From Squalus acanthias (taxonomy: Eukaryota): a DNA stretch of 64,000 nt. The stretch lies in assembly GCA_030390025.1 (NCBI GenBank), contig CM059453.1, forward strand, positions 7,378,001 to 7,442,000. The letters run 5' to 3'. Under the pieces are notes generated by a model, which searched no databases, had not been told where the DNA came from, and saw only the letters and a list, made by a program, of their open reading frames with translations. Both the position numbers and the translations under genes were made by a program. This document shows, one piece after another, positions 148 to 61,030 of the stretch (position 1 is the first letter of the stretch; every line of letters begins with the position of its first letter).

Positions 148-528
148 CCTTTTGTAGTGTTCAATGTTCTGTTGTGATGCCAAAAGTTGTGTCGGCGGTG
201 TTGGGTTCTTGTGCAGAGATCCCGTGTAAATTTGATAACATAGGCTACATCGCCAACCTGAACGGGCGGTGGATAAAGAGGAATCCTGGTCCTGGAACAC
301 ACAATGACTCCATTATCTATGATTCGAATGATCCATTCAGGCAGCATTATAATTTTAGTGGCAGAGCTGAGTTCAAGGGCAACCTTGAAAAAAGACAATG
401 CTCCCTCCTGATAAAGGATATCCGAAAGAGTGATGAGGGTGCATATCAGTTCATCACAGCCATCACCTCGGGCAGAAATTCTATAACACATCGCATTGCC
501 CGTTCCGAAGTCTTTCTTTCTGTTTTAG
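148..528 (+). CDS. Gene A V-set Ig exon
   Basis: ctcag|cct...ttag|gtgag, 381 nt, phase 1-1; GSCAEIPCKF...W...[18 protein letters not shown]. Confidence 0.9.
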
Positions 529-59100: not shown

Positions 59101-61030
59101 CAACCAGTTCTCTATCCATTTCAATACCTTGCCCCCAATCCCATGTGCCTTAACTTTACACGCAAAAGGTAAATCATGCTTGACTAATCTACTGGAATGC
59201 GGGACCTTATCAAAAGCCTTTTGGAAGTACAAATACACGACATCCATTGGTTCTCCCTTTTCTATTTTAGCAGTTACATCCTCAAAAAATTCCAGCAGAT
59301 TAGTCAAGCATGATTTACCTTTTGTAAATCAATGTTGACTTTGTCCGATCCTGTCACTGTTTTTCAATTGCTCAGCTATTACATCTTTTATAATGGACTC
59401 CAGCATTTTCCCCACTACCGATGTCAGTCTTACCAGTCTGTAATTCCCCGTTTTCTCTCTACAACCCTTTTTCAATAGTGGGGTAATATTAGCTACCCTC
59501 CAATCCATGGGTACTGTTCCAGATTCCATCGAATGTTGGAAGATGATCAGCAATGCATCTACTATTGCTAGGGCCACTTCCTTAAGTACCCTAGGATTTA
59601 GATTATCAGGCCCTGGGGATTTATCGGCCTTCAATCCCTTCAATTTCCCTACCACCATTTCCCTACAAATACTGATTTCTTTCAATTCCTCACTTTCATC
59701 AGACCATATGTTCCCCAACATCTCTGGTGAGTTTATTTGTGTCCTCCTTTGTGAAGACAGAACAAAAATATGTATTTAATTGGCCTGACATTTCTTTGTT
59801 CCCCATTATAAGTTCCCCTGATTCTGACTGCAACGGACCTATGCTTGATTTCACTAATCTTTTTCTCTTCACATATCTATACAAGCTTTTACAGTCAGTT
59901 TTTATTTTCCCTGTAAGCTTACTCTGGTATTCTATTTTCCCCTTCTCAATTAATCTCTTTGTCCTCCTTTGTTCAATCTTAAACTGCTCCCAATCCACAG
60001 GGTTACTGCTTTTTCTGGCCAATTTATATGCCGTCTCCTTGGATCTTATGCTATCCCTAATTTCCCTTGTTAGCAATGGTTGAGTCACGCTTTTTGTTTT
60101 ATTCTTATGCCAAACTGGGATGAACAAATTCAGTAGTTTGTCCATGCGGGCTTTGAATGTTTGCCATTGCCTATCCACCGTCAACCTTTTGAGAGGCAGT
60201 GCCCAATCAATCCTAACCATCTCGCACCTCATACCATCGTAGTTTACTTTATTTAAATTCAGGACCCTACTCTCTGAGTCAACTACTTCATTCTCCATCC
60301 TAATGAAGAATTCTATCATATTATGATCGCTCCGACCCAAGGGGCCTCGCACAACAAGATTGCTAATTAATCCTTTCTCATTGCATAATACCCAGTCTAC
60401 GATGGGCTAATCTCTGGTTGGTTCCTAGCATTATTGGTCCAGGAACCCATCCCGTAAACACTCCAGGAATTCCTTCTCCACAGTATTGTTACTAATTTGG
60501 TTAGCCCAATCTATATGTATATTAAAGTCAACCAAGATGACTGCTGTGCCCTTATTGCATACTTCTCTAATTTCCCTTTTAATGCCATCCCCAACCTCCG
60601 CATTACTGTTTGGAGGTCTATATATCAGTCCCACTAACGTTTTCTGCCTCTTGTTGTTTCTCAGTTCAACCCATACAGATTCCACATCATCAGAGCTAAT
60701 ATCATTCCATCATGTCTTAACAACGCTCATCTCATGGATCAGTTCCATTAGAAAACTTACAAGGGAAAAAATAGTTTGATTTCTTCTGGTGCAGACAGCA
60801 CACTCCCATCGCATTCTAATCCATATCTGCAATAGTTCCATATCTAACACAAATACCTTCCATTACAGAGGGACGATCAGTGTACAGAGGTTGGTCGTGG
60901 CGCCGCACAATCGACTAAACCAGCTCAGAATGACGAGATTGCGTACGCGACCGTCAATGTCTCCAACTTCCGCAAACATGATCAATATATTCAAAATGAG
61001 GAGACCAGCGAATATGCAGCAATTAAATAG
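47083..61030 (+). CDS. Gene B: Siglec/MAG-like inhibitory receptor, paralog of gene A (3 cytoplasmic Tyr motifs)
   Basis: Exons 47083-47125 (leader), 47765-48145, 50324-50635, [51386-51643, donor mutated], 52571-52858, 53680-53773, 56393-56480, 60869-61030. Shared exons have the same sizes and phases as gene A, except that the last exon is 7 codons longer. Motifs VIYSTV, IAYATV, SEYAAI. 455 aa if the donor-less exon is skipped. Confidence 0.82.
47765..48145 (+). CDS. Gene B V-set Ig exon
   Basis: ctcag|ttg...ttag|gtgag, 381 nt; GSCAEIRC...[20 protein letters not shown]. Confidence 0.9.
50324..50635 (+). CDS. Gene B C2-set Ig exon 1
   Basis: 312 nt, AG/GT intact, 89/104 aa identical to the gene A exon. 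Confidence 0.9.
50963..51112. mobile_element. Fold-back insertion of the same pLTR family as 2231-2633
   Basis: ~55-bp arms centred on gag|ctc (51060/51061); TSD tcataaatggaag (50950-50962, 51113-51125); empty site in gene A at ~9292-9304. Confidence 0.78.
51386..51643 (+). pseudogene. Gene B C2-set exon 2, probable pseudoexon
   Basis: Homologous to 9565-9822, but the donor reads caat|ttaag instead of caat|gtaag and the B-strand Cys is replaced (LLLYF vs LLLYC). Confidence 0.75.
52571..52858 (+). CDS. Gene B membrane-proximal Ig exon
   Basis: tgtag|ataaa...aagg|gtacg, 288 nt, ~90% aa identity to gene A. Confidence 0.88.
53680..53773 (+). CDS. Gene B transmembrane exon
   Basis: [32 protein letters not shown]; tttag|...aaag|gtaggt. 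Confidence 0.88.
55114..56284 (+). mobile_element. CR1 3' fragment (paralog of 13066-14227)
   Basis: Same flanks and extent as the gene A copy. Confidence 0.85.
56393..56480 (+). CDS. Gene B cytoplasmic exon with ITIM VIYSTV
   Basis: ttcag|gaag...tgac|gtaagt, 88 nt. Confidence 0.87.
58008..60705 (-). mobile_element. 5'-truncated CR1 (APE+RT) in the last intron of gene B
   Basis: [23 protein letters not shown] fragments; absent from gene A at ~16000. Confidence 0.9.
60869..61030 (+). CDS. Gene B last exon (IAYATV and SEYAAI motifs)
   Basis: ttacag|AGG...[10 protein letters not shown]...[15 protein letters not shown] at 61111-61116. Confidence 0.86.
   Translation, partial: RDDQCTEVGRGAAQSTKPAQNDEIAYATVNVSNFRKHDQYIQNEETSEYAAIK

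Follow-up and report, generated by a model that had tools for sequence, protein, structure and literature searches.

A 64-kb stretch of Squalus acanthias DNA (GenBank assembly GCA_030390025.1, contig CM059453.1, positions 7,378,001 to 7,442,000 of the forward strand; hereafter the window, in whose coordinates all positions are given) carries three Siglec-type genes, A, B and C, whose V-set immunoglobulin (Ig) domains have lost the arginine at the canonical sialic-acid site. A Siglec is regarded as a functional lectin when its F-strand arginine forms a salt bridge to sialic acid; because that residue is absent, A, B and C are Siglec-derived but are not functional Siglecs by the arginine criterion. 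Self-comparison of the window indicates that A and B are colinear duplicates (bases 1-20146 versus 47620-63993) and that C is a more distant, inverted relative placed between them. We propose that they belong to a tandem cluster of type I receptors of the Siglec family that would extend across the sharks, similar to MAG minus its third Ig domain. In this family an old and wholly Arg-less subfamily I (A, B) stands beside an Arg-variable sister branch, subfamily II (C). By analogy with known Siglecs, it is reasonably probable that A, and probably B, act as inhibitory receptors for non-canonical ligands through immunoreceptor tyrosine-based inhibitory motifs (ITIMs). The exon models, built from splice sites and phases, are as follows.

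148 to 528, + strand: gene A, Siglec-type V-set exon; Arg column is Ile (codon ATC, 453-455)
3594 to 3905, + strand: gene A, Ig2 exon; holds the partner Cys of the inter-domain disulfide (MAG C165 position)
9565 to 9822, + strand: gene A, Ig3 exon; counterpart of MAG domain 4 in the multiple alignment
10745 to 11032, + strand: gene A, Ig4 exon; MAG domain 5-like, extra Cys pair retained
11856 to 11949, + strand: gene A, transmembrane exon; hydrophobic core without charged residue
14337 to 14424, + strand: gene A, middle cytoplasmic exon; ITIM VIYSTV
17263 to 17403, + strand: gene A, last coding exon; ITIM IVYATV, ends in TGA (17401-17403)
38729 to 38896, - strand: pseudogene C, last exon; frame open through the tyrosine motifs
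39214 to 39471, - strand: pseudogene C, Ig3 exon; two in-frame stops
40281 to 40586, - strand: pseudogene C, Ig2 exon; frameshift, stop, no partner Cys
43465 to 43837, - strand: pseudogene C, V exon of subfamily II; 1-nt and 7-nt deletions, G-strand stop
44207 to 44249, - strand: pseudogene C, leader exon (splice scan and tblastn)
47083 to 47125, + strand: gene B, leader exon (splice scan)
47765 to 48145, + strand: gene B, V-set exon; Arg column is Ser (codon AGC, 48070-48072)
50324 to 50635, + strand: gene B, Ig2 exon; partner Cys present
51386 to 51643, + strand: gene B, decayed Ig3 exon; B-strand Cys changed to Phe at 51454, donor GT changed to TT
52571 to 52858, + strand: gene B, Ig4 exon; MAG domain 5-like
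53680 to 53773, + strand: gene B, transmembrane exon; uncharged core
56393 to 56480, + strand: gene B, middle cytoplasmic exon; ITIM VIYSTV
60869 to 61030, + strand: gene B, last coding exon; ITIM IAYATV, distal SEYAAI, then stop

The Siglec derivation of the V domains, which the original prediction had proposed from the letters of the window, is borne out by both sequence and fold. The V domains of A and B exceed the Pfam cut-offs for V-set and Ig_CD22, and their best PDB sequence match is sialoadhesin (E 1.7e-11 and 1.6e-10, respectively), followed by MAG. A Siglec V framework pattern matches twice in the window and never in any of 20 base shuffles. With an AlphaFold model of the A V domain (pLDDT 82.6), Foldseek places sialoadhesin and MAG at the top (E 2.8e-10 to 3e-9), and VIA-align gives a Z of 17.1 against MAG (root mean square deviation 1.9 A, 114 residues) and of 16.9 against sialoadhesin (1.9 A, 111 residues), the next families following from Z 15.9. 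In the same model strand B carries C26, strand E carries C84, and the Cys position of the F strand is taken by F101, in agreement with the proposed E-strand rather than F-strand cysteine in A and B. The quoted framework motifs are also in place: GSCAEI at 204 (+) in A, 47821 (+) in B and 43781 (-) in C, and CSVTHNCP at 3653 in A and 50383 in B. In PDB alignments the arginine of the Y-x-F-R motif of sialoadhesin and MAG faces Ile in A, and in a multiple alignment the column of rat MAG R118 holds Ile in A and Ser in B, and it is Ile in C (codon ATA, 43540-43538, one base off AGA), so that all three are Arg-less at the canonical site as claimed. The residues of MAG that contact its ligand are R118, Y65, Y127 and T128, and the mutations R118A, Y127A and T128A abolish ganglioside binding (PMC5150538; this and all other articles are cited from excerpts). 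Canonical sialic-acid binding without the arginine would be very unlikely on this precedent (PMC13358205, PMC5150538), and A and B probably recognize ligands other than sialic acid bound in the canonical way.

Beyond the V domain, the exon models and Pfam describe A and B as type I membrane proteins in which a V domain precedes C-type Ig domains, collinear end to end with MAG minus domain 3. Domains 1, 2, 4 and 5, the transmembrane segment and the tail of MAG/Siglec-4, including the ITIM-bearing MAG of fish and coelacanth, are thus colinear with A and B. Among the 12 rat-MAG cysteines checked in these four domains, A keeps 12 and B keeps 11. Both cysteines of the C37-C165 disulfide are retained in A and B, whereas C lacks the Ig2 partner, and C421, C430, C432 and C488 are all kept; C37-C165 and C421-C430 are disulfides of MAG (PMC5150538). 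Tail residues Y558 and Y620 of MAG align with A and B, and the middle tyrosine motif lies at the matching place. The likeness of the proximal domain to MAG domain 5 is weak when the Ig4 exon is searched singly against the PDB (E 0.005, rank 10, contactins above) and an atlas search with it returns generic Ig clusters only, while the V exon returns CD22-like and CD33-like clusters as its first two. The likeness nevertheless stands, as the original prediction had it, on the four retained cysteines and on a family profile that matches MAG domains 4-5 with an E of 1.6e-23; over the full length, MAG is the best PDB match of that profile (E 1.5e-63). Other comparisons are closer: over domains 1-3 the profile scores MAG and Siglec-8 in a near tie (131.5 versus 126 bits), Ig2 of A scores slightly higher with Siglec-8 than with MAG, and the V domain of the Arg-bearing Heptranchias protein P0161 scores 48.8 bits with the Siglec-7 V domain and 35.9 with that of MAG. 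Pairwise, the best match of A Ig3 among four MAG orthologues is domain 4 in two and domain 3 in two.

These features are those of a MAG-related paralogue, with a domain-5-type proximal Ig carrying an extra Cys pair and a three-tyrosine tail. The marks of a MAG orthologue are missing from A and B: there are four Ig domains instead of five, domain 3 being the one without counterpart, and there is no conservation of R118, Y65, W22/WxxW or I473, a dimer residue that is replaced by Ser. MAG is also a single conserved gene, whereas the shark family is multigene and fast-changing. The pattern [ILVS]-x-Y-x-x-[LVI] occurs twice in A and three times in B (VIYSTV, IAYATV and SEYAAI), matching the two to three ITIM-type motifs that had been predicted, and a stricter form ending in L or V, as used in PMC7226832, occurs twice in each. 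Gene A has only VIYSTV and IVYATV because its TGA at 17401-17403 intervenes.

The gene models differ in their state of preservation. All junctions in A and B are GT-AG with consistent phases, with the sole exception of B Ig3; the seven exons of A and seven of the eight exons of B show no frameshift and keep their splice sites. The frame of A is open up to its TGA at 17401, and its leader exon would sit upstream of base 1, outside the window. With all exons B encodes 541 aa; splicing at the next GT, 4 nt beyond the lost Ig3 donor, leads to a stop at 333 aa, while omission of Ig3 leaves an open 455-aa frame. Ig3 of B is probably skipped in splicing, and the V-Ig2-Ig4 layout that would result is found in 8 of the 19 family proteins checked, which makes a working B plausible. 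C is a pseudogene, in which the E-strand Cys is deleted as well and only 317 bp separate Ig3 from the last exon; tblastn with 26 family and MAG proteins found no Ig4, transmembrane or middle cytoplasmic exon for it. In the whole window this search returned only 20 exon clusters, all of A, B and C (the leader exon of B came from the splice scan, not from tblastn), and neither further Ig, transmembrane or tail exons nor an activating partner. No partner with a charged transmembrane segment was found within the window, and no other protein-coding host gene was recognized among its listed open reading frames. The original prediction spoke of three receptors; three Siglec-type genes are indeed present, but the count is overstated, C being a dead gene and both A and B being damaged. 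The start of the A V exon (150-167) has two extra cysteines, at positions 2 and 6, as have several subfamily I members but not B, and A Ig4 has one extra Cys.

To place these genes we used 21 relatives from the best 150 of 355 matches (E<=0.001) of a cluster-representative search; a profile search returned 22 matches, of which one is a turtle MAG and the other 21 are shark proteins with names. The genera represented among the named relatives are Heptranchias, Pristiophorus, Heterodontus, Scyliorhinus, Carcharodon, Cetorhinus and Stegostoma, all species and genus counts resting on named rows only, and they cover both Squalomorphii and Galeomorphii. Contrary to what had been supposed, the family is therefore not lineage-specific. 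A V tree was built from 46 rows with the Arg column and its neighbors removed; it includes nine MAG rows and neither CD33-related nor chondrichthyan MAG rows, and 5 of 51 rows with long branches (two P0030 domains, the second V of P0001, P0078 and P0073) were left out of it and of the approximately unbiased (AU) tests. The family forms one clade of 29 rows (98/96), and the family and the nine MAG orthologues fall in separate supported clades. Subfamily I together with its Arg-bearing sister P0009 is supported at 95/86 and subfamily II at 90/81. None of the 17 rows of subfamily I (A, B and 15 database rows) has Arg in the canonical column, which reads I in 12, S in 3, F in 1 and L in 1. Twelve of these rows are named, from Heptranchias and Pristiophorus (Squalomorphii), from Heterodontus, Scyliorhinus and Carcharodon (Galeomorphii), and from Cetorhinus, which we take to be a galeomorph. 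In subfamily II (C and 10 database rows) the column holds Arg in 5 of 11 rows, two of the five being nearly identical in V, with Thr in 3 and Lys, Ala and Ile in 1 each. An earlier V tree, with the five long-branch rows in and the Arg column kept, gave an Arg-less group of 18 rows (99/94) and placed the Arg-bearing P0078 near C, whose nearest relative, Heptranchias P0161, retains a canonical YYFR at 57-58% identity.

The V tree requires at least seven changes at the Arg column, two of which fall in a multi-V outsider. A single clade of subfamily I plus C, as a shared loss would demand, is rejected (AU p=0.0125), and so is a single clade of all 23 non-Arg family rows (AU p=6.7e-5); the groups tested fit the hypothesis of the original prediction, yet were fixed after the earlier V tree had been seen. 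The idea that the arginine was lost before these duplications accordingly holds for A and B and fails for C, a member of subfamily II. The loss in A and B precedes their duplication and, judged from the tree, the loss in subfamily I would precede the split of the shark superorders; subfamily II has lost the residue several times separately. Among the best 120 of 130 matches, from 8000 scored candidates, no chondrichthyan MAG was seen; this does not show that none exists. The database prediction P0001 (Heptranchias) is a fusion in which a family member is joined (residues about 570-810 and from 848 on) to a 7-TM receptor (PF00001) and to another Siglec-like gene, divergent and likewise Arg-less in its V domain, a hint of neighboring genes in the Heptranchias genome. 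In a further database protein, P0005, four Siglec-type V domains follow one another, their Arg columns reading Arg, Lys, Ser and Lys; it has no cytoplasmic motifs and represents another Arg-variable Siglec-like lineage.

Divergence between A and B is strikingly uneven along the gene. Amino-acid identity is 54% in the V exon versus 70-91% in the other six, dS is 0.48 versus 0.04-0.20, and codons for the same residue differ synonymously at 14 of 67 sites in V versus 22 of 316 in the remaining exons (p 0.002). Introns near V (to about base 1250) show 90 mismatches in 343 positions versus 1372 in 8732 beyond (p about 1e-6), a breakpoint that was set by eye after viewing the alignments, in a stretch that partly borders an insertion. 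In a tree of Ig4, transmembrane segment and tail, A and B are sisters (100/97, path 0.19); in the V tree they lie 0.94 apart and are not resolved as sisters. In the earlier V tree A grouped with Heterodontus and Scyliorhinus (95/89) and B with Pristiophorus (90/70). This pattern suggested trans-species V lineages, but they are not established, since the AU test does not reject a single V clade of A and B (p=0.35). This unevenness suggests either exchange of V modules or homogenized stalks. Synonymous differences in the constant exons (22/316) lie below the divergence of the introns (about 16%), which may reflect recent exon-centered gene conversion. Scyliorhinus P0002 carries a subfamily I V domain, but its proximal domain and tail group with subfamily II, a combination that reflects an exchange of this kind or else an artefact of prediction. 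Within V, the BC, CC' and FG loops of A and B are 14%, 30% and 21% identical, against 71% for the framework, and in the 17 rows of subfamily I the mean column entropy is 2.2-2.4 bits in these three loops versus 0.9 for strand B and for the stretch from D to F, with loop limits set after the alignments had been seen. No positive selection on V was found (dN/dS 0.64).

On these grounds the following mechanism can be proposed. The receptors of the family would be laid out as V, Ig2, Ig3, a MAG-5-like Ig4, a transmembrane segment and a tail with three tyrosine motifs; of the two old subfamilies, subfamily I would have lost the arginine early while its genes were retained. If A and the Ig3-skipped B are expressed, a ligand bound at the V domain would cluster them, Src-family kinases would then phosphorylate the ITIMs, and SHP-1 and SHP-2 would be recruited to damp activation, as ligand clustering, tyrosine phosphorylation of the tail and SHP-1/2 do for ITIM-bearing Siglecs (PMC13358205, PMC7379906). 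The ligand would more likely be a protein or another surface structure, recognized through the variable BC, CC' and FG loops, than canonically bound sialic acid, and V modules would be exchanged, or stalks homogenized, between paralogues. Several observations weigh against this interpretation, beginning with the genes themselves. The TGA of A precedes and cuts off the distal tyrosine motif, of which a remnant extends to 17427; the V framework of B has its D-strand Arg72 changed to Gly and an extra Cys77; and given lesions in both, A and B could be early pseudogenes. Between them dN/dS exceeds 1 in the two short exons and amounts to 0.5-0.9 in the last exon and in Ig2-Ig4, and purifying selection is not demonstrated because the intervals for the constant exons are wide. 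Ig loops are more variable than strands in any family. The 17-row Arg-less group taken alone, with the Arg column removed, is supported at only 83/69, and the database relatives are gene predictions of which P0001 and P0032 are visibly mis-assembled.

Some of these points recur in the rival explanations. Decay of the whole local cluster, with all three genes here pseudogenes or relaxed and their odd residues the result of decay instead of a new specificity, would account for a dead C, for the premature stop of A, for the lost donor, lost Cys, Arg72Gly and free Cys of B, and for the lack of demonstrated purifying selection. We regard it as unlikely: about 16% of intron positions differ between A and B, yet, as described above, nearly all exons are free of frameshifts and keep their splice sites. 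The loss of the arginine is moreover common to 15 database proteins and is therefore no local decay, so that this explanation bears on the local copies and not on subfamily I. An equally small chance attaches to a relocated arginine, in which a basic residue now at G-strand position 115 would bind sialylated, sulfated or other anionic glycans; a nearby G-strand basic residue could restore anion binding and would then count against our interpretation. Counted from the domain end, this position is Arg in 6, Lys in 1 and His in 5 of 17 subfamily I rows, with Arg in A and B, whereas in subfamily II it is Tyr in 6 and His in 4 of 11. So anchored, it corresponds to the ligand contact Y127 of MAG (PMC5150538), and in the A model (F strand 97-107, G strand 112-125) the strand register suggests that 115 lies on the face that also carries 102. 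The rival is nonetheless weak because three alignments map the position differently (MAFFT sets MAG Y127 at position 112, and phmmer aligns MAG Y124 with the Tyr of subfamily II) and the loop of B is poorly modeled (residues 107-115, pLDDT below 50). Five of the 17 rows are non-basic, the column entropy is 2.1 bits and the rows are related.

Least probable of all, in our view, is that A and B are MAG-like adhesion molecules of nerve or epithelium whose tyrosine motifs serve Fyn-type signaling and not immune inhibition. MAG is the best full-length PDB match and the sole non-shark protein among the 22 profile matches, several members are annotated by NCBI as "MAG-like" or as "Schwann cell myelin protein-like", and, within the scope given above, no chondrichthyan MAG was seen. 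Set against this, the V clade of the family is separate from the nine MAG orthologues and the MAG ligand residues, WxxW and I473 are not kept; tandem expansion, pseudogenes and variable loops better fit immune receptors, as is generally known of CD33-related Siglecs. Fish MAG itself bears ITIMs and is present in blood cells (PMC7226832). Returning to the inhibitory-receptor interpretation, a bolder version would have the shark family be the counterpart of the CD33-related inhibitory cluster, with a MAG-like ancestor close to the root of the jawed vertebrates. Its Arg-less branch would have abandoned sialic acid ahead of the superorder split and persisted as a family of ITIM receptors that recognize protein or pathogen ligands through three variable loops, V modules being swapped between common stalks and tails; we consider this version doubtful.

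Comparison with known systems helps to situate the family. A four-Ig layout with a MAG-5-like proximal domain is that of Siglec-5. Sialoadhesin/Siglec-1 and CD22/Siglec-2 resemble A and B through V sequence matches and Ig_CD22, but A and B have only three to four Ig domains, a MAG-type proximal domain and tail, and no arginine. The named shark database proteins are of the same family, with V identity up to 62% and names that are automatic only; the members of a given species mostly lie on contigs of equal length, which suggests that they are clustered in the genome. CD33-related Siglecs share the tandem cluster, the tail with an ITIM and a distal ITIM-like motif, pseudogenes, gene conversion and repeated loss of the arginine (PMC7379906). 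In paired CD33-related Siglecs V is the near-identical part (PMC13358205), whereas in A and B it is the most divergent. The canonical arginine has been replaced and binding lost in primates as well, in human Siglec-XII (R122C), Siglec-17P and the great-ape Siglec-5/14 (Arg to His or Tyr) (PMC6288428, PMC7379906), and sialic-acid-independent protein ligands are documented for Siglec-5/14 (PMC6288428). These primate losses are recent, species-limited and often polymorphic or then followed by pseudogenization, a pattern to which pseudogene C is similar, whereas in subfamily I the loss extends to 17 of 17 rows from six shark genera.

Arg-less Siglecs as such are already known, and the database proteins already carry automatic Siglec-like names. 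In main texts, with subscription journals thinly covered, we found no description of the shark family or of its Arg state. One excerpted study places Siglec families in the jawed-vertebrate ancestor (PMC8455134), while a table in another groups the Siglec family under Tetrapoda (PMC13262535); the excerpt of a skate myelin paper is silent on shark MAG (PMC7916940), and that of a further study states that teleosts and fish lack CD33-related Siglecs with sharks unmentioned (PMC7226832). Because teleosts are reported without them, the shark branch informs the timing of inhibitory CD33-like Siglec clusters. Arg-less Siglecs are usually seen as recent primate accidents heading to pseudogenes; if our interpretation is true, the Siglec scaffold can be retained for a sialic-acid-independent job. 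The family also offers natural matched pairs for ligand finding, e.g. Arg-bearing Heptranchias P0161 versus Arg-less P0007 or A. This significance is tempered by the lesions in the local copies and by the predicted nature of their function.

The rest of the window, which has 43.5% G+C and no N, holds many retroelement remains. Decayed LINE-type fragments, presumably CR1/L2-like, lie on both strands at 3927-8511, 13155-14230, 23511-24526, 55134-56280 and 58006-60709. The fragment at 13155-14230 and 55134-56280 is common to A and B and older than their duplication, while a block at 3927-8900 is confined to A and one at 58010-60700 to B. A tandem array of Penelope-type retroelements spans 24689-32716, with copies 95-99% identical; the copy at 29320-32334 (+) is open over 1004 aa and matches RVT_1 and GIY-YIG weakly, under the Pfam cut-offs. 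The array looks recent and is possibly still intact. Related tandem repeats of about 75 bp flank both ends of the array (22794-23206, 24496-24690 and 32717-32877), and a minisatellite with a period of about 33 bp (37689-38085) lies just past the last exon of C. Genes B and C stand head-to-head with about 2.8 kb between their ATGs (44249-47083), an interval that could be a shared promoter region and that contains a short tandem repeat at about 45090-45274.

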